This document shows, piece by piece, positions 16,184 through 29,835 of a stretch of 64,000 nucleotides of DNA. Origin of the DNA: an uncultured Acidobacteriota bacterium (GTDB taxonomy: Bacteria; Acidobacteriota; Thermoanaerobaculia; Multivoradales; UBA5704); assembly GCA_963770895.1 (NCBI GenBank), contig CAVYRF010000002.1, forward strand, positions 3,168,001 to 3,232,000. Direction: 5' to 3'. Numbering within the stretch: position 1 is the first letter of the stretch; every line of letters starts with the position of its first letter. The position numbers and the translations under genes were made by a program. Below the pieces are notes generated by a model. The model had not been told where the DNA came from and did not search any database. It worked only from the letters and a program-made list of their open reading frames with translations.

Positions 16184-17814
16184 ATGAACTCGATCGTTCC
16201 GCTGGCGATCCCAACCAACGAGCCGGTGCGTGCCTACGGACCGGGGTCGCCCGAAAAAGCGTCGCTCAAGCGGCGCCTCGAAGAGATGCTGCGCGACACC
16301 GTCGAGGTGCCGCTGATCATCGGCGGCCGCGAAGTGCGCACCGGCGACACCGCGCAGGCGGTCTGCCCCCACGATCACGGCCACGTGCTGGCCACCTTCC
16401 ACCAGGCCGGCGCGCCGGAAGTCAACGCCGCGGCGGAAGCGGCCCAGAAGGCGTGGCGCGACTGGTCGGAAACGTCGTGGGAGACGCGCGCCGCGGTGCT
16501 GATGCGCGCTGCCGACCTGCTGGCGGGGCCGTGGCGCGACACCTTGAACGGCGCCACCATGCTCAACCAATCCAAGACGGCGCACCAGGCGGAGATCGAT
16601 GCGGCTTGCGAGCTGATCGATTTCTGGCGCTTCAACCCGTACTTCATGCAGGTGATCTACCAGGCGCAGCCGTGGTCGCACGCGGGGGTGTGGAACCGGG
16701 TGGACTATCGCCCGCTCGAAGGGTTCGTGTTCGCGGTGACGCCGTTCAACTTCACCTCGATCGGCGGCAACCTCCCCACGTCGCCCGCGGTCATGGGCAA
16801 CACGGTGCTGTGGAAGCCGGCCTCGACGGCGGTGCTGTCGGGCTACTACATCATGAAGATCCTGCAGGAGGCGGGGCTGCCCGACGGCGTGATCAATTTC
16901 CTGCCCGGCCGCGCCAACAAGGTGGGCGACCCGGTGCTCGCCCATCCCGACCTGGGCGGTATCCATTTCACCGGCTCGACGCCGGTGTTCCAGGGGATGT
17001 GGAAGACCCTGGGCGACAACATCGCGCAGTACCGCAGCTACCCGCGCATCGTCGGCGAAACCGGCGGCAAGAACTTCGTCTTTGTCCACCCGTCCGCGGA
17101 TCGCGACCACGGTGGTCACGGCGATCGTGCGCGGCGGCTTCGAATACCAGGGCCAGAAGTGCTCGGCGGGCTCGCGCGTCTACGTGCCGCGCTCCCTGTG
17201 GTCGGGGGTGCGGCAGGACCTGGTCGACCAGGTCGGCAGCATCCGCATGGGCGGCGCCGACCGATTTCCGCAACTTCATGGCGGCGGTCATCGATTCGTG
17301 GGCCTACGACCGGATCAAGCGCTACATCGACTTCGCCAAGGATTCCCCCGACGCGGAGATCCTGGTGGGCGGCGGTTGCGACAACTCGGCGGGCTATTTC
17401 ATCCAGCCGACGGTGGTGGTGACCACCAACCCGCGCTTCAAGCTGATGACCGAGGAGATCTTCGGCCCGGTGGTCACGGTCTTCGTCTACGAAGACGGCG
17501 ACCTGGACGCCACCGCCGACCTGTGCGACTCGACCAGCCCCTACGCCCTGACCGGCGCCGTGTTCGCCGAAGACCGCGCCGCGATCGAGCGCCTCAGCCG
17601 CCGCCTGCGCCACGCCGCGGGCAACTTCTACATCAACGACAAGCCGACCGGCGCCGTCGTCGGCCAGCAACCCTTCGGCGGCGCCCGCGCCTCGGGCACC
17701 AACGACAAGGCCGGCTCGATGGCCAACCTGATGCGCTGGACCTCCCAGCGCGCCATCAAAGAGACCTTCGTGCCGGCGCGGGACTACCGCTACCCCTTCA
17801 TGGCGGAGGAGTAA
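16184..17814 (+). pseudogene. pruA: 1-pyrroline-5-carboxylate dehydrogenase with two +1 frameshifts (about 17108 and 17253); pseudogene or sequencing error
   Basis: AEIDAACELIDF, PFNFTSIGGNL, FTGST, GETGGKNF | FEYQGQKCSA | EEIFGPV, NDKPTGAVVGQQPFGG spread over three frames. Confidence 0.9.
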
Positions 17815-17853
17815 AGGCCGGCGTGGCGGCTTGGTAGGAGCCCCCCGGTCAGC

Positions 17854-17931
17854 CGTGAGGGCCGCGGGCGGGGCGGGGGCCGGGCGGCTGAAGGCGGCCG
17901 CCCTCCGGCCCCCCGTCTTCTGGGCCTCACG
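17854..17931. terminator. Long imperfect GC-rich hairpin between convergent genes
   Basis: CGTGAGG/CCTCACG outer arms; GGGGGCCGG/CCGGCCCCC and GGGCGGC/GCCGCCC inner arms; no U-tract. Confidence 0.55.
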
Positions 17932-17952
17932 AGGGCGACCGCGCAGCTTGAG

Positions 17953-18114
17953 CTAGGTGCAGGTAATACAGGTCTGCACGATGGTGACGCAGGGCGGGGA
18001 AAGGGTGGGGCAGGGGTGGGAAGCAGCGGCCACCATACCCGCGAGGTGATCGCCGACCAGTTGGTGGACGGTTTCGCGGCTCAGCGTCAGCTTCCTGGTG
18101 TGTGGTTTTCTCAC
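17953..18114 (-). CDS. Putative lanthipeptide/RiPP precursor peptide (53 aa; not in the ORF track)
   Basis: MRKPHTRKLTLSRETVHQLVGDHLAGMVAAASHPCPTLSPPCVTIVQTCITCT*; GGGGAAG upstream of the GTG start; alternative in-frame ATG at 18129. Confidence 0.8.
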   Translation of the reverse strand: MRKPHTRKLTLSRETVHQLVGDHLAGMVAAASHPCPTLSPPCVTIVQTCITCT

Positions 18115-18542
18115 GGTTGGCTTCCCCATCGGCAGGCGAGATCCGTCGCGGTTCCCGGGGCGAGCGCCGTCACGCGCGACGCGGCGTCCTGGGAGAGCAG
18201 AGGGGTTCCGCGGGCCGGTAGATGCAAAAAATCTATTCGAAAGGGATGAGCGCCCGCAACCTGGAGGCGATCTGCGCTCCCGCGTTCCCGCCTACCGGTG
18301 GTGTCCTATCAGTGTGTTGGAGCTCGGGTTGGCCTAGACCTGCTGCAGGTTTCTCCCCGCAAGGGGAGGAACCGTTCCGAAACCGCCCTGCTCTACGTCG
18401 ATGAACCGGAAGGCAAGGAGACTCTGCGTCGCCTGGGCCGGCTCATCCTCAACCTGGCCGTCGAGACGACCCGCTTGCCCTGCGAGGAGTCGACGACCCG
18501 GGGCCGGGCGCTCCCGGAGGCCTGCGGTAGGATGCCGCCGCC

Positions 18543-19805
18543 ATGGGCTCGCGCATCGTATTGACCACCTTCGGCTCGCTCGGCGATCTCCATCCGTTCC
18601 TCGCCATCGGCATCGCGCTCAAGGCGCGCGGGCACGGCGTCGTGCTCGCCACCAGCGAGGGCTACCGCGACAAGGTGACGGCGGCAGGTCTCGAGTTCTA
18701 TCCGGTGCGGCCGCACGTCTCGCTGGAGGACCGCGACCTGGTGGCCTATGTAATGGACCTCAAGAAGGGCCCGGAGAGGGTGCTGCGCGAGATCATCCTG
18801 CCGGTGCTCCACGACAGCTACGTCGACCTGCTGGCGGCGATGGCGGGGGGCGCGGATCTCCTGGTCACCCATCCGCTGAGCTTCGCCGGCCCGCCGATCG
18901 CCGAGACGCGCGTCCTGCGCTGGGCCTCGGTGGCGCTGGCGCCGATGGGCTTCTTCTCGGCCTTCGATCCGCCGCTCCTGCCTCCCTTTCCGGCGCTGGC
19001 GCGGCTGCGCGCCCTGGGGCCGTGGATCAACGGCCGGGTGATGGGGTTCGGGCGCCGCATGGTGCTGCCGTGGACCGAGCCGGTGCGCCGCCTGCGCGCC
19101 GAGCTGGGCCTGCCGCCGGGCGCCAATCCGATCTTCGAGGGCCAGCACTCGCCGTATCTCGTGCTGGCGCTGTTCTCGGCGGTGCTGGGCGCGCCGCAGC
19201 CCGACTGGCCGCCGCAGACCGGGGTGACGGGCTTCGTGTTCTACGACCACCACGACGGGGCGGTCGACCTGCCGGCCGACCTGGAGCGCTTCCTCGCCGG
19301 CGGCGAGCCGCCGCTCGTTTTCACCCTCGGCTCGGCCGCCGTGCTCAGCCCCGGCCCCTTCTTCGCCGAGAGCGCCGCCGCCGCGCGGAGCCTCGGGCGC
19401 CGGGCCGTGCTGGTCGGCGTCGAGCCGCACGAGTGTCCCGCCGGGCTTCCCGACTCGATCTTCACCATCCGCTACGCCCCCTTCTACCGCCTCTTCCCGC
19501 GCGCCGCGGCCATCATCCATCAGGGAGGCATCGGCACCACCGGCCAGGCCCTCGCCGCCGGCCGGCCCATGCTGGTCGTGCCGTGGAGCCACGACCAGCC
19601 CGACAACGCCGCCCGCCTGGTGCGCCTGGGCGTCGCCCGCACCCTCGGCCGCGCGCGCTACACCGCCCCGCGCGCCGCGGCCGCCCTGCGTTCGCTGCTG
19701 AGCGACGCGCCAGCCACCGACCGCGCCGCCCGGCTCGGCGCCAAGGTGCGCGGCGAAAACGGCGTCGAGGTCGCCTGCGCCGCGCTCGAACGCCTACTGG
19801 CCTGA
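18543..19805 (+). CDS. Family 1 glycosyltransferase (MGT/sterol/rhamnosyltransferase-like)
   Basis: GSLGDLHP, FTLGS, IIHQGGIGTT, PWSHDQPDNA. Confidence 0.92.
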   Translation: MGSRIVLTTFGSLGDLHPFLAIGIALKARGHGVVLATSEGYRDKVTAAGLEFYPVRPHVSLEDRDLVAYVMDLKKGPERVLREIILPVLHDSYVDLLAAMAGGADLLVTHPLSFAGPPIAETRVLRWASVALAPMGFFSAFDPPLLPPFPALARLRALGPWINGRVMGFGRRMVLPWTEPVRRLRAELGLPPGANPIFEGQHSPYLVLALFSAVLGAPQPDWPPQTGVTGFVFYDHHDGAVDLPADLERFLAGGEPPLVFTLGSAAVLSPGPFFAESAAAARSLGRRAVLVGVEPHECPAGLPDSIFTIRYAPFYRLFPRAAAIIHQGGIGTTGQALAAGRPMLVVPWSHDQPDNAARLVRLGVARTLGRARYTAPRAAAALRSLLSDAPATDRAARLGAKVRGENGVEVACAALERLLA

Positions 19806-19819
19806 CCCGCCGGCGCCGA

Positions 19820-22102
19820 TCACCTCGAAGGCGGCTCGCCTTCGCCGAGCATCCTCTGCAGCGCCGCGGCGGCTCCCGGCACGTCCAGACGGGCGGCGGC
19901 ATAGTCGGCGGCCAGCAGGTCGTCGGAGAGGTAGGGGTGGAACTTCTCGCGGCTGCGATTGGCGACCGAGCGCGCGAGGTCGAGCGCCGGTGGCGGCTCG
20001 CCGGCTGCCATACGGCCGAAGAGAGGGCGCAGGCGCTCCGGCGCCATCCTGGCGATGCCGAGCGCGGCGCCGAAGGCGGTCGCCTCGCAGCCGGCGAGAC
20101 GGAGCCAGAGCCGCAGCGTTTCCAGGATGCGGTCGCCGCACCACGGAAAGACGAGCGTGGTGTCGCCGTCCGCGAGCCACCAGGCCTTGGCCAGGCCATA
20201 GCGGATGAAGCTGGCGCGCCCTTCCGCCAGCAGCTCGCGCGCCCGCGGATCCAGGTAAACCGGCACCTCAGTCCCCGCCAGCACCTCGAACATCTTGCGG
20301 CGCACGCGATCGTGGACAGGCGGGAAATCGGCCGGCGCGAAGACCGGTGGGCGGCCGCCGCCGGCCGCCTGCACGTCGATCGTCTTTTGCCCCGCATCGA
20401 TGCCGACGATGCGCCAGCGGCGGCCGCCGAAAATGAGGAAGGAGCCGATCAGCAGGGAGATCTCGACCGGCATGTTCCCCAATACCCGGTCGCCGGCCAC
20501 GATGCGGTACTCCTCGGGCGACGAGAAGGCGGCGTAGAAGCCATAGTGGTTGACGACGCTCTCACCCGCGCCTCCCAGGACCAGCTCGCCGTCGTGATCC
20601 TGCTGAAGGAGGGAATGGCTCGCGAGGCTTCGCAGCACGGTGCCAAACTGCGAGCGGCTGACGCTCCCGAACGGACCCTGGCCGCAGAGGTCGTCCCAGG
20701 CTGGCGCGGCCCGTACGCCGCCGTGCTGGGCGATGAGGGAGAGGGTCTGCTGCACCAGGGTCGACAGGTGCAGCGCCCCCGGCCACGGCGGCTCGCACCA
20801 GCCGGCGAGCAGCAGATCCAGGGTGGCGATGGTCTGCACCAGCTCGGTCCGCAGGGCGTCACCGGGTGCGCTGTCGGCCTGCACCTCGCTCTCGGTGATG
20901 TAGACCCGCAGGATCGACGGGCCGCCGGTACGGCCGGAGCGGCCCAGCCGCTGACGCGTGCTGGCGACCGACGGCGGCGCGCCGAGCTGGGCGATGCTCT
21001 CGATCGCCCCGACGTCGATGCCCAGCTCCAGGGTTGTCGTGCAGATGGCCGTGGCGGGCCGCGAGCGGTCCTTGATCGCCGCCTCGGTCTCCTCGCGCAG
21101 GGCTTTCGAGAGGTTTCCGTGATGCGGCCAGAACTCGTTCGGCACCGCGAGGTCCTGACACCTCCGGCGCAGGCGGTCGGCGCAGAGCTCCACCCGCCGC
21201 CGCGAGTTGGCGAACACGAGGTGATGGCCGCCGCGAAGGGTCGCGAAGAGATGCGTCGCGATCTGCAGCTCGTCGGCAGACTCTGCATCCGGCTCCGCGC
21301 CGGCCTTCGCACTGCCATCGGTCGCGGTTTCAGCCGTGGCGGCGCCGACCCATCGCTCGCCGGCGCGCGCCGTTCCGGCACCGGCGCCCAGGCGGTAGCC
21401 GCGCACCTGCAGGCGCACCTCCTGGCCGCTCTCGTTGGAAACCACGATTCGCACGCCGCCGCCGCGGCGGGGGCGCAGAAAGTCGGCGGCGAGGCCCATG
21501 TCGCCCAGGGTCGCGCTCAGGCCCACCCGGGCGACGCGGCGAGCCAGGGCCGCCTCCAGCCGGTGGAGCTGCGATTGCAGCTGTCGCCCGCGCTCGGAGC
21601 CGATGAAGGCGTGCAGCTCGTCGATCACGCAGTAGGAGAGGCCGGCGAAGAGGGTTGCGATCCGCGAGCCGTGCAGCACGAAAAGAGCTTCCAGGGATTC
21701 CGGCGTGATCACCAGCACGCCTTCGGGATGCCGCAGCAGCCTCCGCTTGAAGCCGGCAGCCACGTCGCCGTGCCAGCGGTAGAGTGGCAGATCCAGCTCC
21801 TCGCAAAGGCCTTCTAGGCGGCGGAATTGATCGTTGATCAGCGCCTTGAGCGGCGACACGCAGAGGGCGCGAATCCCCTCTCCCGATCGTCCGGCCAGTG
21901 CGCTCAGGATGGGCAGGAAGGCGGCTTCCGTCTTCCCCCGCGCGGTACCCGCGGCGACGATGACGTCCGCGTCGCCACGCAGGATGAGCGGGATTGCCGC
22001 CTCCTGGATGTCGCGCAGCTCGTCCCAGCCCTGGTGCCAGATCCAGCGCTGGATCCTCGGATCGAGCTCGCGAAATGCGAGCGATTCGCCGGCGCCTGCC
22101 AT
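19820..22102 (-). CDS. Lhr-like SF2 DEAD/DEAH helicase
   Basis: Q motif LRDIQ, AGTARGKT, SPLKALINDQ, TPESL, DELH, SAT, HHGNL, TTLELGID, QRLGRSGR. Confidence 0.92.
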   Translation of the reverse strand: MAGAGESLAFRELDPRIQRWIWHQGWDELRDIQEAAIPLILRGDADVIVAAGTARGKTEAAFLPILSALAGRSGEGIRALCVSPLKALINDQFRRLEGLCEELDLPLYRWHGDVAAGFKRRLLRHPEGVLVITPESLEALFVLHGSRIATLFAGLSYCVIDELHAFIGSERGRQLQSQLHRLEAALARRVARVGLSATLGDMGLAADFLRPRRGGGVRIVVSNESGQEVRLQVRGYRLGAGAGTARAGERWVGAATAETATDGSAKAGAEPDAESADELQIATHLFATLRGGHHLVFANSRRRVELCADRLRRRCQDLAVPNEFWPHHGNLSKALREETEAAIKDRSRPATAICTTTLELGIDVGAIESIAQLGAPPSVASTRQRLGRSGRTGGPSILRVYITESEVQADSAPGDALRTELVQTIATLDLLLAGWCEPPWPGALHLSTLVQQTLSLIAQHGGVRAAPAWDDLCGQGPFGSVSRSQFGTVLRSLASHSLLQQDHDGELVLGGAGESVVNHYGFYAAFSSPEEYRIVAGDRVLGNMPVEISLLIGSFLIFGGRRWRIVGIDAGQKTIDVQAAGGGRPPVFAPADFPPVHDRVRRKMFEVLAGTEVPVYLDPRARELLAEGRASFIRYGLAKAWWLADGDTTLVFPWCGDRILETLRLWLRLAGCEATAFGAALGIARMAPERLRPLFGRMAAGEPPPALDLARSVANRSREKFHPYLSDDLLAADYAAARLDVPGAAAALQRMLGEGEPPSR

Positions 22103-22121
22103 GCCGTACCGTGCCGCGTCG

Positions 22122-23513
22122 CTAGAGCTTGAACGCGGCGAGCTCGTCGTCGGCGTCAACGGTGGAGCCAGGGGTCGGGCTGGGGCCGGAGGTCGCCGGG
22201 TGGGGGTCGAACCCGGATTCGGGGTCGCCGGGGCTGCCGGCGGGAAGGGCCGCGGGATCGGCTTCGCCGGAGACGGTCACCTCGCCGAGCAGGCTTCGCC
22301 AGGAAGCCTCCGGGTTCTGGTCGAGGACGGCGAGCAGGTCGAGGAAGGCGCGGATGGTGTTGCGCGGCGTCCGGAAGTAGGCTTCGCCCACCTTGCGATA
22401 GCAATGTTCGAGGAAGGCGAGAATGGCTTCGTCGGGCAACAGCAGTGGGGCGGCGGCGCGGTCGGACGCATGGACCTCGCGCAGCCGCACCAGCAGCACG
22501 TAGAGCTCCTCCTGCGTCAGGTTGGGCAGATGGATCACCGGCCCGCTGTAGTCTCTCAAGCCCTCGCCGGCGAAGCGGTTGGCGCCCAGGCGGGAGCGCA
22601 GCGCCTCGTAGCTGTAGAGGCCGCGGCGCTCATCCATCAGGAGCTCGGGCGTGCCGCCCAGCAGGAAGCCGAGCCCGACGCTCGCTCCCTGCAGGGAGTC
22701 GTTGAGCATGCGCAGGATCTGCTCGTAATTGCTCGACCGGGCGCGCGTGTTGGCGAGCTTGTAGAGGTTGACCAGCTCGTCGAGGCAGACGAGCAGACCT
22801 CCGTAGCCGGCCAGCCGCACGAAGCGGGCGAAGACCTTGATCTGATCGTAGAAGTTGTCGTCGTCGACGATGGTGCGCACGCCCAGCGCCTTCCTGGCGT
22901 CGGTCCGGGTGGTGAACTCCCCCCGCAGCCAGCGGACGGCATCGCCCTTCAGGCGATCGTCGCTGGTGTCGTGACCGCGCCAGTAGGCGGCGACGACCGC
23001 CGCGAAGTCGTAGCCGCCCACCAGCTCCGACAGGCTGCCCAGGCGCTCCGTCAGGACGGCGTCGACCGCCAGGCCGCGGGTCTTGGCGTCCTCGAGCGCG
23101 GAGGTGACGAAGCGCTCGACCACGTTCGCCACCGCTCCTCCCTCGGGGCGGCTGCGCGTGGCGAGGTTCGCCATCAGCTCGGCGTACAGCGACCGCGCCT
23201 CGCCCGAGGTGCCGTGAAGCCGGCGGTCGGGGTTGAGGTCGGCATGAGCGCAGACCAGACCGCGCTCCATGGCGATAGCCCGCACCAGGAAAAGGAAGAA
23301 CGTCTTGCCCGAGCCGAACTCGCCGATCACGAAGCGGAAGGCCGAGCCGCCGTCGCGGATCGCCTCGACGTCCCGCAGCAGGGCCTCGATCTCCAGCTTG
23401 CGCCCCACCTGGATGTAACGCTGGCCCCGCCGCGGCACCACGCCGGCCCGCAGCGACTGCAGGATCGCCTCGCGATCGCGCGGGCGGATGGTCTCGGTCT
23501 TCGGCTCATCCAT
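22122..23513 (-). CDS. DUF2791 (BrxD-like) P-loop ATPase
   Basis: SLRAGVVPR, GEFGSGKT, LVCLDE, YEALRSRL, TPRNTIR. Confidence 0.9.
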   Translation of the reverse strand: MDEPKTETIRPRDREAILQSLRAGVVPRRGQRYIQVGRKLEIEALLRDVEAIRDGGSAFRFVIGEFGSGKTFFLFLVRAIAMERGLVCAHADLNPDRRLHGTSGEARSLYAELMANLATRSRPEGGAVANVVERFVTSALEDAKTRGLAVDAVLTERLGSLSELVGGYDFAAVVAAYWRGHDTSDDRLKGDAVRWLRGEFTTRTDARKALGVRTIVDDDNFYDQIKVFARFVRLAGYGGLLVCLDELVNLYKLANTRARSSNYEQILRMLNDSLQGASVGLGFLLGGTPELLMDERRGLYSYEALRSRLGANRFAGEGLRDYSGPVIHLPNLTQEELYVLLVRLREVHASDRAAAPLLLPDEAILAFLEHCYRKVGEAYFRTPRNTIRAFLDLLAVLDQNPEASWRSLLGEVTVSGEADPAALPAGSPGDPESGFDPHPATSGPSPTPGSTVDADDELAAFKL

Positions 23514-26016
23514 GCAGCATCCCCTCCAGCAGATCGGTTCTCACCTCGACCACCTCGTCGCCTTCGAGCACGGCCTCGCCGAAGGCTGTGAAAGCCGCCT
23601 CGTTGATGGTTTCGAGCGCTCCTTGCGGCAACAGGCCGAGCGCCTGGGTGAGCTGGGCGACCTTTTCGCGGCGCCACTCCGGACACGACGTGAGATAGCG
23701 TAGCAGGGCCGAATGGGCGGCATCCAAGCCGAGGATCGCGTAGCCGTCCGGGGCGGCGCGGCCAGCTGCGGGCGCGGCCGGAGTGATGGATGGAGCGGAC
23801 GCGGCGGCGGAGCTGGCGGAATCCACGGTGTCGGCGGAATCGAAGATCGAGGCCAGCACGCCGTGGAGCGCTGCCGTTTCCGCGATCGTGGTGCGAATCC
23901 GTGCCGCGTCGAGCACCGGACCCGGCGCAGTCGCAGGCGCCACCGGCGCCGCGGCCGCCGGCGGCGGCAGGGCAAAGCCAGCCGAGCTGCCGGCCGGCGC
24001 CACGATGATCGGCGCATCGGCCGATGAGGCGGCGACCGAGGAGCCGGCGGCAAGGGCGTCGGCGGCTGGGGCCGCGGGCGCGCCGAGGGCGCCGGCAGCA
24101 GCAGGCGCCGCCCCCGCGCTGAGGCGCGCGTGGACGTCGGAATAGACCTGCGCCGCCGGCAGGCCGAGAAGGCCGTAGATCTTCGCCAGGTGCGGCAGAT
24201 GCTCCGGCAGCGGCTGCCCTTCCGCCGTGACCAGCTCGACCAAGGCGCGCGGCAGCCACCCGCGCTGGGCGCTATCGAGCGGCGCCAGCCGCTTCCTAAC
24301 CTCTACAGGGCCCGGAGGATTGGCAATCAGCCAGAGGCGCCGCGCCTCCAGGCGGGCGAGCCATGCCGGGGAGCAGCCCAGACTGCCCGCGAAGGACGCC
24401 GCAAGCTGGTGCTCGCGGTGCGCGAGAAGCGGCGCCGCGCCGTCGCGTACCGTGGCCGCCAGATGAAGGAGCGCATCGGCCGCCCCGCTGCCAGCGGTCG
24501 CGGCGGCTGTGACAACGCCGGCGGTCGCGGCGGCGGTAGCGCCATCGCCGCCGGCGCGGCCACCACCCCCGGCGCTATCAGCGCCAGGCTGGAAGAAAGC
24601 CAGCCGGTGGACGCGGGACGGCGCGAAGCCGGCCATCCGAGCGTCGGGCTCGACGCCATAGCCGCGCGCCTCGAGAAACGCCGCCAGGGCTTCGGCATCG
24701 CCGCGGGCGAAGCGTCCGGCGCTCTTCGCCGGCCAGCGGGCGGCCACATCCCGCAGCTCGACGACGCCGCGATCGGGGCCGGCGATCTGCTCGGCGATCC
24801 AGGCGAGCAGCGACTTTCCCGCGGCGCTGTCGTGCGCCGCGGTCAGCTCGTGCGGCAGGAGAGCCACGGCCGCCGGGCTGTCGCCTTCGCCCGTCCGGCC
24901 GATCCACCGGCTGTAGGGCGCCAGCTCGTCGAGAACGCGGTTGCCGAGGTCCCGCAAGAGCGGTGGCGGCGCCGTGACGTCGACGTCCGGCATGTCGGGC
25001 AGAGCGAGCGGAAGAGGGCCGTCGAAGGTCGGGCTCGCGGCCACGTACTGCGTGGTGAGCCGGGCGCCGCCCGCCTCCAGCTGGAGCCCCGCCGCGAACG
25101 CCTCGTGGTAGCGCAGCAAGAAGAGGCGCCGGAAGTCCTCGGAGCAGCGCTCCGCCGCTCGGCGATGGCTGACCTCGGGCAGCGCGAGCATCCAGGCGAG
25201 CGCCCACTCGCCGGGCAGCGGCGCGCCGCGCCCGGCGCAAGCGCCGAGGCCGATTTTTAGGTCCAGCCAGCTGTTCGCCGACGTGGCGTCGAGCGGCGGC
25301 GCCAGGGTCGCTGGATTCACCCCTTCGAAGAGGATATTCACGGCGCGCAGGAAGCGGCTGGCATAGCCGTGAAATGACCGATTGGCGCCATACAGGGCGA
25401 GCAGCCGGCGCACCTCCGCAACCAGCAGCGGCACCTCCCGCGTTGCTGCCGGGTACCGCCGCGCGTCGATCAGCAGCCGGCGCTCGATGCCGTAGAAGTA
25501 CAGGAAGACGTAGCCGATATGGGCCAAGGGATCGGCGCGCCCGCCGGCGAGCCAGGCGAGATAGGCCGCCCGGCAGGCGGGCGGCATCGTCGAGTAGGAC
25601 GGCCAGTACGACATCTGCGCGCCCTGGTGGTCGGGGTGGCTCCGCGCCACCGGCAACCGCGGGTCGATGAGCGCCGGCTCGACGGGGGCGCGCCACCGGC
25701 TGAGTCCGGCGAGTCCCGACCCGACGTACAGCATGCCGGTGCCCAGGTCGAAGCCGCCCACCCTTCCGGACCACTCGCGCGGCTGCCACCAGCCATCCCG
25801 CACGGCGGCCGCGGAGACCGGCGCGGCGGACGCGACGGAGGCGACCGAGGCGACCCGGACCGCAACGGCCGACTGCGGCACCGGATCCGGATCCGCCGCC
25901 GGCGGGATGGGGCCGATCGCCAGCGAGATCGGGCCAGCCTGGCGCGCGGCGAGGTCGGCGCGCAGCCGCGCGATCGCCTGCTCGGCCCAGCGCAGCACTT
26001 CCGCGCCGAAACTCAC
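23506..26016 (-). CDS. TerB-N / TerB-like / TerB-C domain protein
   Basis: TerB-N: GMLYVG, EPALID, SYWPSY, YLAWLAGGR, IGYVFLYFYGIERR. TerB-C: GLDAAH, GALETINEAAF. GTGA overlap with the upstream stop. Confidence 0.88.
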   Translation of the reverse strand: MSFGAEVLRWAEQAIARLRADLAARQAGPISLAIGPIPPAADPDPVPQSAVAVRVASVASVASAAPVSAAAVRDGWWQPREWSGRVGGFDLGTGMLYVGSGLAGLSRWRAPVEPALIDPRLPVARSHPDHQGAQMSYWPSYSTMPPACRAAYLAWLAGGRADPLAHIGYVFLYFYGIERRLLIDARRYPAATREVPLLVAEVRRLLALYGANRSFHGYASRFLRAVNILFEGVNPATLAPPLDATSANSWLDLKIGLGACAGRGAPLPGEWALAWMLALPEVSHRRAAERCSEDFRRLFLLRYHEAFAAGLQLEAGGARLTTQYVAASPTFDGPLPLALPDMPDVDVTAPPPLLRDLGNRVLDELAPYSRWIGRTGEGDSPAAVALLPHELTAAHDSAAGKSLLAWIAEQIAGPDRGVVELRDVAARWPAKSAGRFARGDAEALAAFLEARGYGVEPDARMAGFAPSRVHRLAFFQPGADSAGGGGRAGGDGATAAATAGVVTAAATAGSGAADALLHLAATVRDGAAPLLAHREHQLAASFAGSLGCSPAWLARLEARRLWLIANPPGPVEVRKRLAPLDSAQRGWLPRALVELVTAEGQPLPEHLPHLAKIYGLLGLPAAQVYSDVHARLSAGAAPAAAGALGAPAAPAADALAAGSSVAASSADAPIIVAPAGSSAGFALPPPAAAAPVAPATAPGPVLDAARIRTTIAETAALHGVLASIFDSADTVDSASSAAASAPSITPAAPAAGRAAPDGYAILGLDAAHSALLRYLTSCPEWRREKVAQLTQALGLLPQGALETINEAAFTAFGEAVLEGDEVVEVRTDLLEGMLHG

Positions 26017-29000
26017 GGCCACGGGGTTCCCATTTCGATGACGCGGCAGAGCGCGTTGGCGAGCCGCATCTGGCGCGGCGTCCGGCACCGCACCCGCGCC
26101 AGGTCGGGGCTGGCGACCACCACGGCGAGGCAGCAGCCGCGCGAGGTCGCGACGTTGAGGCGGTGCAGGCTGTACAGAAACTCCATGCCGCGCGGCGCAT
26201 CCTGGGCGGTGCTCGTCGCCATCGAATAGATCGCGATCGGCGCTTCCTGACCCTGGAACTTGTCGACCGTGCCGACGAGCGCGTCGGGCAGCGCCTCGCT
26301 GATCGTCTTGACCTGCGCATTGTACGGCGTGATCACCAGCACGTCGCCCATGCCGAGTGGGCGTGATAAACCTTTCGAATCCGACCACGTCCCCGCCGCG
26401 GCAAGCAGCGCGCCGACGATGCGGGCGATGAGCGCCGCCTCCTCGCTCGACTCCTTGCCGTTGCCGGCATGCGGCACGGGGAGATAGCGCAAACCGGCGC
26501 CGTCGAGCGGTCCCGCGCCGCGCACTTGCTGCCGATCGCGGCCGGCCTCAGGCGCCAGGCGGTCGTCGTAGAAGGCGCTGGAGGTGAAGTCGCAGATCGC
26601 GGGATGCAGGCGCCACGTCCGCTCGAGGAAGAGCCCCAGCTCCGGCGGCATGGTGAGGGCACCCCCGAGCAGGTGGGCCAGCGCCGACTTCTCGGCTCCC
26701 GGCGGATGGCTGCCGCGCAAAGGCTGATCCAGCTGTTGCGGGTCGCCGAGCAGGACGAGATTGCGGGCGCTGGGCGCGACGGCCACCGTGTTGGCGAGCG
26801 ACATCTGGCCGGCCTCGTCAACGAACAGCGTGTCGACCGCCGCGCCGAAGTCCTCGCGCGCCCACATCCAGGCGGTGCCGCCGGCGACGTCGATCGCACG
26901 CTCCCGAAGCGCCCGCAGCAGCGACTCGTTGGTGCCGAAGCTTTGCGCGCCGGCGCAGGTGCAGCTCTCCCCGGCGCCGGGCTTCTGGCCGAGCCGCAAC
27001 GTCAGCTTGCGCGCCGCGGCGGCGAGCGCCACCTTGTCGAGCAGATTGCCGATCACCTTATGGCTGTTGGCGGTCACCCCCACCTGCCGGCCCGCCGCCA
27101 CCAGATCGACGATCATCTCGGTGCCGGTCGTCGTCTTGCCCGAGCCCGGCGGCCCCTGGATGGCGAGGCAGCCCCGGTCGAGGGCCAGGCCGAGCCGGCG
27201 CGCCGCCACCGCCGCCGGCTCGTCGCCGGCAAGGACGCTGCCCGCCGCCTGGCCGGCGCGCGGCGGCCGCCGCAGCAGGAGATCCCGCGCGGCCCCGTAG
27301 CGCCCGTCGCCCTGCTCGTTCTGCTCGCTCTGGAGACCGTGCTCGATCACCCACTCGGCCACCCGCAGCAGGCTGTCCTTCTGCTCCTGTGCCTTTACCA
27401 ACAGCTCCGGGATCACCGAGGTGGGGTGCGGCTCGGCGCTGGTCCGGCCGCGCTTGAGGTCGAGCGTCCCGGCCGCGGTGTCCACCGCGACCACCTCGAT
27501 CGACTTGCCGGTCGCGGGATCCTTGACCGGTCTGCCCGGGCTCACCTCGTGCTCCTGCGGTGGAAACCGATAGCGGTGCACCAGCGACCTGGCCACGGTA
27601 GCGACGACGCCCTCGTAGACTAGGCCGCCGATCGGCTCCGGCTCCTCGATCCTTTCCTCGTCGCTCAGCCCGACCAGGAAGAACCAGCGCCACCATGCCG
27701 CCTTGTCCTCGCGGCGGTGCCAGGAAAGCAGCTGCGCCAGCAGCCAGCGGGCGCGCGCCGCGTCGCAATCACCAGCCACCCCGGCCTCGGCGCCGACGGC
27801 GGTTTCGTCCTTCTCGTCTTTCTCGACGCTCGCGGGCCCGGCCGCGGCCGGATCGAAGCCGGCGGTCAAGCGCTCCTCCGCCGCCCTCACCCGCTCTAGA
27901 TATTCGGTCAGCGCCGGGCTCGGCGACGGCTCGGGCCGCGCCGGCCGCGCCAGCGGCGTACCGCCCAGCCGCTCGGCCAGCTCGCGCCGGCGCTCCTCCA
28001 GCCAGTCGCGCAGGCGCCAGTTCGAGCGGCAGTCGTCGCGGTTGTACGCTTCGACGTGCTCCCGAATCGCCGGATCGCCATCTGGGCGGCCGCCTTCGTC
28101 CAGCCAGGCCGAAAAGGTCGCGAGGCTCGCGCCGGCGTCGCGCAGATCGACGGCGCGCTCGAAGCCGTACAGGGGTTCCAGACACTTGATCGAGTAGCTC
28201 TCGACCGAGGCCCGCAGCGATTGCCGCACCACGCGATAGAGGTCGACCAACACGCCACCGCGCAGCAGGCGATCCACCGCGTCCTCGCGCGTGGCGTGGC
28301 GGCCCATGAGGCGGCTGAGCGCCGTGCGCTCGTAGGGCGCGTAGTGGTAGATGTGGAGGTGCGGATCGCGCTCCAGCCGCGCGATGAAGAAATCGACCGT
28401 CTGCTCGAAGGCCCGGCGTTCGCCGGCGAGACTGATGGCGCCGCCATCGTCCCAGGACCAGAAGCGGTGGAACGCCGGCTCGCTCGCGGCATCCGGGCAG
28501 CCCGGATCGACAATGCCGAAGAGGAAATCGACGCCATCTTCGAGCGCGAACGGATCCCCCTCCATGTCGAAGAAGAGGTCGCCCGGCGAGGGCGCGGGAA
28601 GACCCGCCAGGCCGAGCGCGGGCTCGAGCTCGCCGGCGCGCGTCCGTGGCGGTTCGAGCAGCTCGTAGAGCGTGCGTCCGGCGCGCTCGCCCTCCACCTG
28701 GATGCGGGCCTGCTCGCGAACGCGCGCCAGGGCCGCGTCCTTGGTGCCGGCGGCCGCTCCGCGTTCCGCCGGTGGCAGCAGGGCGAGGGCTTGCCGCGTC
28801 GTGACGTCGCGCTCGCGCAGGTCGCGCCGCTGCTGCGCGGTGATGCCGGCGACCAGCGAGAGGTCGTCGACGCGGCGCAGGTGCGCCCGGCACTCGCCGC
28901 TCCACCGGCAGACCTCGCAGTGCTCCACAGGGTCGGGGCGGGTGGGAGGCGGAAAGCAGGGGGCGCCGTGGATGGGGAGCGCTTCGAAGCGCTGCTTGAC

Positions 29001-29594
29001 CAGCCGGTAATAGGCCGCGTACGAGGCCACCCGATGCGCCTCGACGCGCCGCAAGCTGCCGCCGAGCACCACATGCATCCAGGTGGGAGTCACGCCCTGG
29101 ACGGCGGCCAGCAGCTCGCTGTAGAGCGACAGCTGCAGCACCGCGCCGGCAGTCGCTTGGCGCGCCAGCTTGGTGTCGTACACCTCGTAGCTCCAGGGGC
29201 CGAGGGCGCTCGGCACCTCGACGCGCACCAGGAAGTCGGCGTGGCCGCGCCAGCGCCCGTCGAAGAGCGTCGCCTGGTAGACGACGTCGTCGCCGCGATG
29301 CAAGGCGGCCGCCAAGTCCTCGACCGCGGCGCGGAGCGCCGTGCCGCTCCGCGCTCCCCAACCGTCGTTCGCCATCTCGGTGACGCGGCGCCCCTCGGCG
29401 CGGAGCGCCGCCAGGAACCGCTTCTCGTGCTCCAGGCCGCGCCGCGCGATCGCGTCGAGCTCGGGATCCTCGCGGAAGGGCCGCTTGGCGAGGCCGGCGA
29501 GCGCCGCGGCCTCGAGATGCGCCAGGTGCTCGCAGGCCAGGTAACCGACGAGGTCGGTAGCGCTCCAAACGGTTTGGCCGTCGATCCGCTGCAT
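26013..29594 (-). CDS. TM0106-family RecB/Cas4-like nuclease + RNase H-like domain + SF1 (Upf1/Dna2-like) helicase
   Basis: SATDL...C, GHADFL, YDTK, QLSLY, CEVCRWSGEC; FFDMEG, DLY, YNRDD; QGPPGSGKT, DEAGQ, GDPQQL, TPYNAQ, TVDKFQGQE, RLNVATSR. Confidence 0.92.
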   Translation of the reverse strand: MQRIDGQTVWSATDLVGYLACEHLAHLEAAALAGLAKRPFREDPELDAIARRGLEHEKRFLAALRAEGRRVTEMANDGWGARSGTALRAAVEDLAAALHRGDDVVYQATLFDGRWRGHADFLVRVEVPSALGPWSYEVYDTKLARQATAGAVLQLSLYSELLAAVQGVTPTWMHVVLGGSLRRVEAHRVASYAAYYRLVKQRFEALPIHGAPCFPPPTRPDPVEHCEVCRWSGECRAHLRRVDDLSLVAGITAQQRRDLRERDVTTRQALALLPPAERGAAAGTKDAALARVREQARIQVEGERAGRTLYELLEPPRTRAGELEPALGLAGLPAPSPGDLFFDMEGDPFALEDGVDFLFGIVDPGCPDAASEPAFHRFWSWDDGGAISLAGERRAFEQTVDFFIARLERDPHLHIYHYAPYERTALSRLMGRHATREDAVDRLLRGGVLVDLYRVVRQSLRASVESYSIKCLEPLYGFERAVDLRDAGASLATFSAWLDEGGRPDGDPAIREHVEAYNRDDCRSNWRLRDWLEERRRELAERLGGTPLARPARPEPSPSPALTEYLERVRAAEERLTAGFDPAAAGPASVEKDEKDETAVGAEAGVAGDCDAARARWLLAQLLSWHRREDKAAWWRWFFLVGLSDEERIEEPEPIGGLVYEGVVATVARSLVHRYRFPPQEHEVSPGRPVKDPATGKSIEVVAVDTAAGTLDLKRGRTSAEPHPTSVIPELLVKAQEQKDSLLRVAEWVIEHGLQSEQNEQGDGRYGAARDLLLRRPPRAGQAAGSVLAGDEPAAVAARRLGLALDRGCLAIQGPPGSGKTTTGTEMIVDLVAAGRQVGVTANSHKVIGNLLDKVALAAAARKLTLRLGQKPGAGESCTCAGAQSFGTNESLLRALRERAIDVAGGTAWMWAREDFGAAVDTLFVDEAGQMSLANTVAVAPSARNLVLLGDPQQLDQPLRGSHPPGAEKSALAHLLGGALTMPPELGLFLERTWRLHPAICDFTSSAFYDDRLAPEAGRDRQQVRGAGPLDGAGLRYLPVPHAGNGKESSEEAALIARIVGALLAAAGTWSDSKGLSRPLGMGDVLVITPYNAQVKTISEALPDALVGTVDKFQGQEAPIAIYSMATSTAQDAPRGMEFLYSLHRLNVATSRGCCLAVVVASPDLARVRCRTPRQMRLANALCRVIEMGTPWP

Positions 29595-29642
29595 GACGTA
29601 GCCGAAGGTGACGTGGGGACCGAGCCACTGTAGCAGAAACCC

Positions 29643-29664
29643 TCGAAGATGCTTAGATCTTCGA
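29643..29664. promoter_or_regulatory. Perfect 8-6-8 inverted repeat, candidate operator
   Basis: TCGAAGAT-gcttag-ATCTTCGA, about 50 bp upstream of the nuclease-helicase ATG. Confidence 0.5.
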
Positions 29665-29835
29665 CAAAGCACCTCCTGCACAAACACTGTCCAAGGACAG
29701 CGCCCGCCTACCGGGTTGCTGCGGGTTTGCGTGCTCTTGTGCTATGCTTTTGGGGCTATCGACTGACGTCACGTCTGCCAGGTCACGCTTGCAACCAACG
29801 CCGCAGCTCTGACCTGTACCGCTGGCCCTATCGCC

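Follow-up and report, generated by a model that had tools for sequence, protein, structure and literature searches.

How an isolated reading frame of 53 codons could give rise to a modified peptide with no modifying enzyme encoded nearby is the question raised by positions 17953-18114 (minus strand) of a stretch of 64,000 nucleotides from an uncultured Acidobacteriota genome. The stretch, referred to as the window, corresponds to G000:C2:3168001-3232000 in a genome (G000) of 8.16 Mb and 70.7% G+C on three contigs. A first-pass annotation of the window had proposed a hidden lanthipeptide-like precursor here, belonging to a dispersed family matured in trans. Analysis of the whole genome and its relatives supports the dispersed family, which numbers about 95 open reading frames (ORFs). 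For the frame in the window, the reading that we rate somewhat better than even is a class I LanA of the LxLxKx5L/double-Gly leader type, one member of a library of about 95 dispersed genes, specific to its lineage, in which the leader is conserved and the cores are hypervariable.

The frame is open as described at first pass, reading from a GTG at 18114 through 53 codons to a stop, and its translation is MRKPHTRKLTLSRETVHQLVGDHLAGMVAAASHPCPTLSPPCVTIVQTCITCT. An in-frame ATG at 18129 opens a longer alternative of 58 residues (17953-18129, minus strand), upstream of which no Shine-Dalgarno-like motif is present. The GTG start agrees with the spacing of the family (MRKxxxxKL) and follows, after 6 nt, a weak Shine-Dalgarno-like GGGGAAG (18121-18127, minus strand), the ribosome-binding element already noticed. 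Alignment with 40 paralogues (alignment A1) defines a leader of residues 1-30, MRKPHTRKLTLSRETVHQLVGDHLAGMVAA (18025-18114, minus strand), and a predicted core of 23 residues, ASHPCPTLSPPCVTIVQTCITCT (17956-18024, minus strand), with the boundary placed from the alignment and from a relative in genome G004 that reads VAGA/ASKPCPT. All 4 Cys, 5 Thr and 2 Ser fall in the last 22-23 residues, as had been stated, giving a predicted core with seven Ser/Thr for four Cys, as well as 4 Pro. In the leader, LTLSRETVHQL fits LxLx[KR]x5L as L9-T-L11-S-R13-ETVHQ-L19 (53-residue numbering), and conservation in alignment A1 is 90% or higher at L14, L16, R18, E19, T20 and L24 (58-residue numbering). Short-read soil-metagenome contigs (4 runs, one study) cover the ORF with zero differences; they possibly derive from the assembly's own source sample and so exclude assembly error only.

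The six-frame scan for small ORFs with this motif, proposed at first pass, recovers 58 across the whole genome with a regular expression, and a hidden Markov model (HMM) built from that set has about 100 matches with a short tail at E <= 0.5. After inspection, 94-95 ORFs were separable into leader and core, and their leader consensus in alignment A1 is MKKxxxKLxLxRETLxxLxxxxLxxAAGG. A leave-one-out HMM, built from 57 other members with the window precursor excluded and run against 108,811 six-frame segments, returns the precursor at E = 2.4e-7 (32.7 bits); membership is thus not circular, because the scoring model was built without this ORF. The same model has 86 matches in the genome below 1e-3 and none in the reversed database, where the best value is 0.36. 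Members of the family look translated, with a Shine-Dalgarno-like site at -21 to -6 in 86 of the 89 that start at ATG, compared with 19% of random 15-mers; six other members lack ATG and start at GTG.

The cores have a median length of 25 residues and 4 Cys, with at least two Cys in 91 of 94 and Ser plus Thr at least equal to Cys in 92 of 94. Cys accounts for 16.8% of core residues as against 0.7% of leader residues, and mean pairwise identity is 39% for leaders and 22% for cores (4371 pairs), with core identity above 60% in one pair only. By a heuristic split, the residues preceding the core are GG in 57 members, GA in 20, AG in 12, AA in 3 and GS in 2. The genes are scattered: for 72 of 94 the nearest other member is more than 5 kb away, the distance to any lan gene is mostly tens to hundreds of kilobases, and the precursor in the window is 134 kb from its nearest lan gene, which is LanC-like. 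The sole near-identical pair (L024 and G000:C2:3876774-3876926; cores 95% and leaders 83% identical) is separated by 870 kb, which is evidence of recent duplication and dispersal, and a third related copy stands at C2:5454012. A common promoter was considered and rejected, k-mer enrichment over 89 upstream regions having yielded nothing solid; a sigma-54-like GGCAC..TGC motif occurs in 7 of these 89 regions, against a background of 4.9%, and strict matches number 0.

Leaders of the LxLxKx5L type ending in Gly-Gly have been described in Bacteroidetes class I LanAs, whose clusters encode C39 proteases (Walker et al. 2020, PMC7268733). The assignment of the present family to this type, proposed earlier from the motif, is supported by the NCBIfam model NF038153 'class I lanthipeptide' (lant_leader_L1a), which matches 28 of the 41 leaders in alignment A1 (best 7.3e-7), and by the occurrence of the same leader beside LanB orthologues in other genomes. 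Neither Pfam nor NCBIfam gives a Nif11 or NHLP match in the 30-residue leader. A profile search of a collection of 5.8 billion proteins returns 950 at E <= 1e-5, mostly named 'hypothetical'; the label 'natural product precursor' (JGI) or 'class I lanthipeptide [Thermoanaerobaculia bacterium]' (NCBI) is attached to a few. Such names on relatives imply that the peptide kind, a class I LanA with an L1a leader, is already known and partly annotated. The word 'hidden' is therefore only partly apt, since some members in related metagenome-assembled genomes (MAGs) already carry the NCBI name. For the precursor peptide itself, Pfam returns only an unrelated sub-threshold match, and a protein database search with the single peptide finds no protein sharing three 5-residue words, which is uninformative for a hypervariable peptide of 53 residues.

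Genome searches place no LanB, LanC, LanM or C39 gene within the window, and Pfam scans of 50 window ORFs detect no lan or C39 family and no radical SAM protein, in agreement with the first-pass annotation. Candidate maturases are present elsewhere in the genome, which has 14 LanC-domain matches, several of them stand-alone LanC-like genes, two LanB-N matches, two LanM and nine C39 matches. A single LanB is full length and strongly matching (G000:C2:5180050-5183583; 1177 residues with N and C domains), and its best relative in the PDB is MibB. Divergently paired with it is a LanC (locus L071) that keeps the WCYG and CHG zinc motifs. The pair lies about 2 Mb from the precursor on the same contig, so the enzymes are not clustered with it but are available in trans. 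No family precursor occurs in the 20 kb around LanB/LanC. The 1.5-kb stretch upstream of LanB (L071:13632-14890) contains overlapping low-complexity frames, with Gly/Asn or Ala/Thr repeats, and no recognizable precursor.

The related genome G027 has a cluster in the order PCAT-lanA-LanC-LanB, PCAT denoting a peptidase-containing ATP-binding cassette (ABC) transporter. In G000 the best orthologue of this transporter (59% identical) is away from LanB, with another LanC (LanC5) and two HlyD-type proteins. This locus (L088:5235-13737; G000:C2:2967235-2975737) encodes LanC5, a 507-residue unknown protein, the C39-ABC exporter (L088:8253-11840), a GAF-HlyD protein and a HlyD protein, has no precursor gene around it, and is likely to provide shared export and cleavage machinery. 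The two LanM genes (L072:11447-14992 and L073:8811-12463; G000:C2:4307447-4310992 and C2:272811-276463) each adjoin their own precursor of mersacidin/lichenicidin type (..AWRDEDYYLSL.. and ..AWKDPVYRSSL..), the only two such ORFs in the genome. Both carry CHG at the zinc-ligand site, not the CCG of ProcM-type enzymes (PMC10027976); LanM1 also adjoins a nonribosomal peptide synthetase condensation/adenylation gene. A LanM was considered first as the library enzyme, a family member being 3.5 kb from LanM2, and was downgraded after the mersacidin-type precursor of each LanM had been found. Two LanC-like proteins lack both WCxG and CHG (L008, G000:C1:1579906-1581279; and G000:C2:2707932-2709301), and the gene of each adjoins a Cys-free, His-rich precursor of an 'RI..ETLLPL' leader sub-type, further members of which are at C1:652841 and C2:5020187; this sub-type may undergo a distinct, non-thioether modification.

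Other genomes pair the leader with LanB. The gene order is lanA-LanC-LanB in G030, whose LanB is 47% identical to that of G000 over its full length; in addition to its PCAT-containing cluster, G027 has, on contig C7, a second LanB with six lanA genes in tandem 1.7 kb away; and the single family match in the congener G002 is 4.8 kb from LanB. Among 36 public loci with LanB orthologues, mostly in Thermoanaerobaculia MAGs, 23 have a family precursor in their flanks, a Paenibacillus and an Actinomycetota record being among these 23, and several of the 13 negative loci being short contigs. An adjacent precursor accompanies 2 of the 11 LanBs with at least 58% identity to that of G000 and 21 of the 25 with less than 58%, which suggests that the clade nearest G000 lost the precursor next to LanB. 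A complex prediction for LanB (residues 1-800) with the leader alignment scores 0.48 (best control 0.02) and was rated as weak support; of 157 solved complexes 116 passed the mark, as did 2 of 215 mismatches, and at <=0.60 the passes comprised only 18 of the 157 solved complexes plus both passing mismatches. The runs have at least 60% of contacts in common, and the pLDDT of the partner is 48 or more. Because a solved NisB-NisA leader complex exists, the score may be explained by likeness.

Of 41 relatives, 25 have the family; within the taxonomic family to which G000 belongs it is present in 20 of 24 genomes, mostly with 16-58 matches, per-genome counts being lower bounds (150 candidates were scored per genome). 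At least 16 matches are present in 19 of the 41 relatives, a count that is descriptive only, as these genomes are related. In an even sample of the phylum, 11 of 301 genomes, including the unpublished G182, have the family at E <= 1e-5. In that sample many copies occur only in G000, G018 and G025, all in the order of G000, and the expansion is thus confined to one clade.

The precursor occupies a gap of 590 bp between a convergent aldehyde dehydrogenase gene, which ends at 17814, and a divergent GT1-type (EryCIII-like) glycosyltransferase gene (18543-19805). The sigma-70 promoter scan gives 0 sites at the locus. The downstream hairpin described at first pass corresponds to a G+C-rich stem-loop between the convergent stops (about 17875-17913, minus strand); it has no U tract, its folding does not surpass that of dinucleotide shuffles (z = -0.10; 85 of 200 fold equally well), the terminator scan does not pick it up, and it does not hold as a signal. 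The aldehyde dehydrogenase gene (16184-17814) is split into frames at 16184-17422 and 16453-17814. In short-read contigs a single base is missing at 17105 and another at 17252; the frameshift therefore probably reflects two indel errors in the assembly and not a pseudogene.

Comparison with congeners reveals a 12-kb insertion specific to this genome, with the precursor at its left edge. The 3' end of the aldehyde dehydrogenase gene is kept in 9 of 9 congeners (86-91% identity) and homology ends at its stop codon; in G003, G002 and G009, synteny picks up at window position 29833 after 69-206 bp. Together, the stop and the resumption of homology mark 17815-29832 as the insertion. Besides the precursor and the glycosyltransferase gene, it contains a complete Shango system identified by PADLOC (SngC, 19820-22159, E = 4e-260; SngB, 22122-23513, 1.6e-176; SngA, 23506-26388, 2.8e-72) and a gene for an MkoA-like SF1 helicase that includes an RNase H-like domain (26013-29687, PADLOC). 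No direct or inverted repeats of at least 9 nt flank the insertion, and no integrase is seen in it.

The favoured reading starts from what the sequences show: family membership, the leader type, the LanB/LanC and PCAT loci that lack precursors, and the pairing of the leader with LanB in other genomes. Maturation in trans, as proposed at first pass, is likely for the family, since the LanB/LanC pair and the C39 transporter have no precursor nearby and both LanM enzymes have their own. The leader would dock on the single full-length LanB, which would glutamylate Ser and Thr residues of the core and then eliminate glutamate to leave dehydro-residues. The divergent LanC, or another LanC paralogue of the zinc type, would add the four Cys to these, forming up to four thioether rings, and the C39 peptidase-ABC exporter with its HlyD partners (C2:2970253 onward) would remove the leader and export the peptide. 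On a wider scale, we think it possible, at slightly less than even chances, that a family of uncultured soil Thermoanaerobaculia has evolved its own class I version of the prochlorosin system, in which one tRNA-dependent LanB, one or several cyclases and one C39 exporter have lost the substrate genes that once belonged to them and serve a genome-wide library of 16 to about 95 hypervariable precursors, with turnover through strain-specific islands such as the Shango island.

Several observations weigh against this reading, some bearing on the copy in the window and others on the enzymes. The precursor ranks 64th of 115 among the leave-one-out matches, and NF038153 matches neither its leader at E <= 1 nor the whole peptide at E <= 10. 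Its Shine-Dalgarno-like site is weak and precedes a GTG, whereas the 86 of 89 ATG-start paralogues mentioned above have the cleaner AAGGAG-type site usual in the family. Third-position G+C content (GC3) is 0.78, as against about 0.9 typical of genes in this genome. No family ORF lies within 1.5 kb of the syntenic site in 9 of 9 congeners, the copy being at the edge of the insertion. Only one weak core relative was found among 60 genomes of the taxonomic family, a 65-residue ORF in G004 (...DHLADVAGAASKPCPTSLPCPT...) with 58% identity over 34 residues (E = 0.007). C39 proteases cut after GG, GA or GS and require hydrophobic residues at -4, -7 and -12 (PMC10885120). The segment LAGMVAAA does stand where a double-Gly site was first proposed; it reads Ala-Ala at -2/-1, outside this canonical set, whereas the G004 relative has Gly-Ala and most of the family Gly-Gly. 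Cleavage of this copy is therefore doubtful, and it may be a poor substrate of the exporter protease.

Most of these features would fit a genuine family member that is decaying or non-productive, poorly translated or, for want of a double-Gly site, modified without release, and that arrived recently on a defence island. We consider this explanation, the main rival, unlikely, though worth keeping in view. The frame is intact, the leader motif is complete, and the hydrophobic residues of the C39 rule (PMC10885120) are retained as L at -12, L at -7 and M at -4; the core, like that of typical members, still has its 4 Cys together with 7 Ser/Thr. Ala-rich sites are found in several other members (for example, L060), GTG starts in six others, and lineage-specific copies are to be expected in libraries of the prochlorosin type. 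Under the class I library reading, which we continue to favour, this copy may receive its modifications yet be released poorly, or it may be in the course of being lost.

The observations that bear on the enzymes concern the possibility that the family is matured by something other than LanB and LanC: one of the two LanM enzymes, a stand-alone LanC-like protein acting together with an unknown dehydratase, or a GMC oxidoreductase that turns Cys into thiazoles. A LanB match at E < 1e-100 is present in 16 of the 19 large-family genomes (17 with the two adjacent pieces in G020), and none was found at that threshold in G005 (84% complete) or G024 (96% complete); 16 of the 19 likewise have a LanM. 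Family genes occur 3.5 kb from LanM2, directly beside the stand-alone genes LanC3a, LanC10 and LanC12, and, in two cases, about 2 kb from genes for GMC oxidoreductases (C2:2151057 with 2153424; C2:4968566 with 4970417), so that more than one maturase may read the family leader. The two latter spans (G000:C2:2151057-2153594 and C2:4968566-4970905) are reminiscent of ThaO/TheO, and a GMC oxidase forms thiazole on a Cys-rich precursor in Thermoanaerobaculia (PMC13083261). We nevertheless regard an enzyme of another kind as improbable. Each LanM already has its adjacent mersacidin-type precursor. LanM was not found in the large-family genomes G008, G018 and G022, which have 26-34 family matches (G018, 100% complete, has 33), and in G014, G034 and G036 LanM is present with 0 family matches. 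The ThaA and TheA leaders are of mersacidin/lichenicidin type, different from the leader here (PMC13083261, supplement), and the reported thiazole site, a Gly-Cys/GGC motif (PMC13083261), is absent from the core of the precursor. The leader is paired with LanB in the other genomes described above.

A two-gene cassette for a glycosylated peptide, formed by the precursor and the divergent GT1 gene, would account for their common position at the left edge of the insertion, 414-429 bp apart depending on the start codon. It is very improbable: the one paralogue of this glycosyltransferase in the genome (31% identity) is 45.7 kb from any family member, and no homologue of it occurs in the 3.1-kb G004 locus of the nearest core relative. 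The known glycocin enzymes are members of a different glycosyltransferase family. A chance open frame is close to excluded, for although a genome this rich in G+C is full of spurious ORFs and no promoter-like site was found, the leave-one-out value with its empty reversed control, and the agreement in register with 94 paralogues of the leader motif, the spacing of the cleavage helix and the Cys-rich tail, argue against it.

Taken by itself, the ORF in the window would be a modest gain, one more and somewhat aberrant member of the library. Should the library reading be true, a combinatorial-library strategy would have arisen independently with different chemistry, a glutamyl-tRNA-dependent LanB and a separate LanC; class I dehydratases rely on glutamyl-tRNA-Glu (PMC9993889). 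The LanB/LanC pair would then be a naturally promiscuous combinatorial peptide-cyclizing machine, selected for the very broad substrate tolerance that is sought by peptide engineers, and each genome of these abundant uncultured soil bacteria would offer dozens of unexplored scaffolds. Genome mining centred on clusters misses most precursors of such organisms; the RODEO survey of 2020 used a window of seven genes either side of LanC (PMC7268733).

Among known systems, the Bacteroidetes-type class I LanAs (pinensin family, NF038153) have the same leader motif, mostly with Arg for Lys in the family described here. They share with it the GG-type leader end and C39 peptidase-transporters, and LanB and LanC stand beside such precursors as they do in the related genomes of G000. 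The present family differs in its soil acidobacterium host and in its approximately 95 copies per genome, most of them far from lan genes, and the copy in the window differs in missing NF038153 and in having Ala-Ala at the cleavage site. The ThaA/ThaM/ThaO and TheA/TheO systems (PMC13083261) come from the same class, Thermoanaerobaculia, and are likewise ribosomal peptides modified after translation (RiPPs) with Cys-rich cores; GMC genes also lie near two members of the G000 family. Their mersacidin/lichenicidin-type leaders, their clustering with the enzymes and the formation of thiazole at Gly-Cys set them apart, the core of the window precursor having no Gly-Cys.

A parallel in organization is offered by the prochlorosins (ProcA/ProcM) of marine Prochlorococcus and Synechococcus: as in the G000 family, the genes are many and scattered, the leader is conserved and the Cys/Ser/Thr-rich cores are hypervariable, some copies are lineage-specific, and substrates far outnumber synthetases. 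Prochlorosins are class II, made by a single LanM with CCG from precursors with long Nif11-type leaders, whereas the leader in G000 is short and of class I type, the candidate enzymes are a separate LanB and LanC, and the two LanM proteins carry CHG and have their own precursors. Prochlorosin-like clusters are given as the only diversity-oriented example so far in one account (PMC10027976), and no description of a LanB/LanC-associated, genome-wide dispersed class I library, or of the expansion of such a family in Acidobacteriota, was found in the openly accessible literature. The family in G000 is best read as a putative class I counterpart of the prochlorosin library, restricted to one clade of soil Thermoanaerobaculia.

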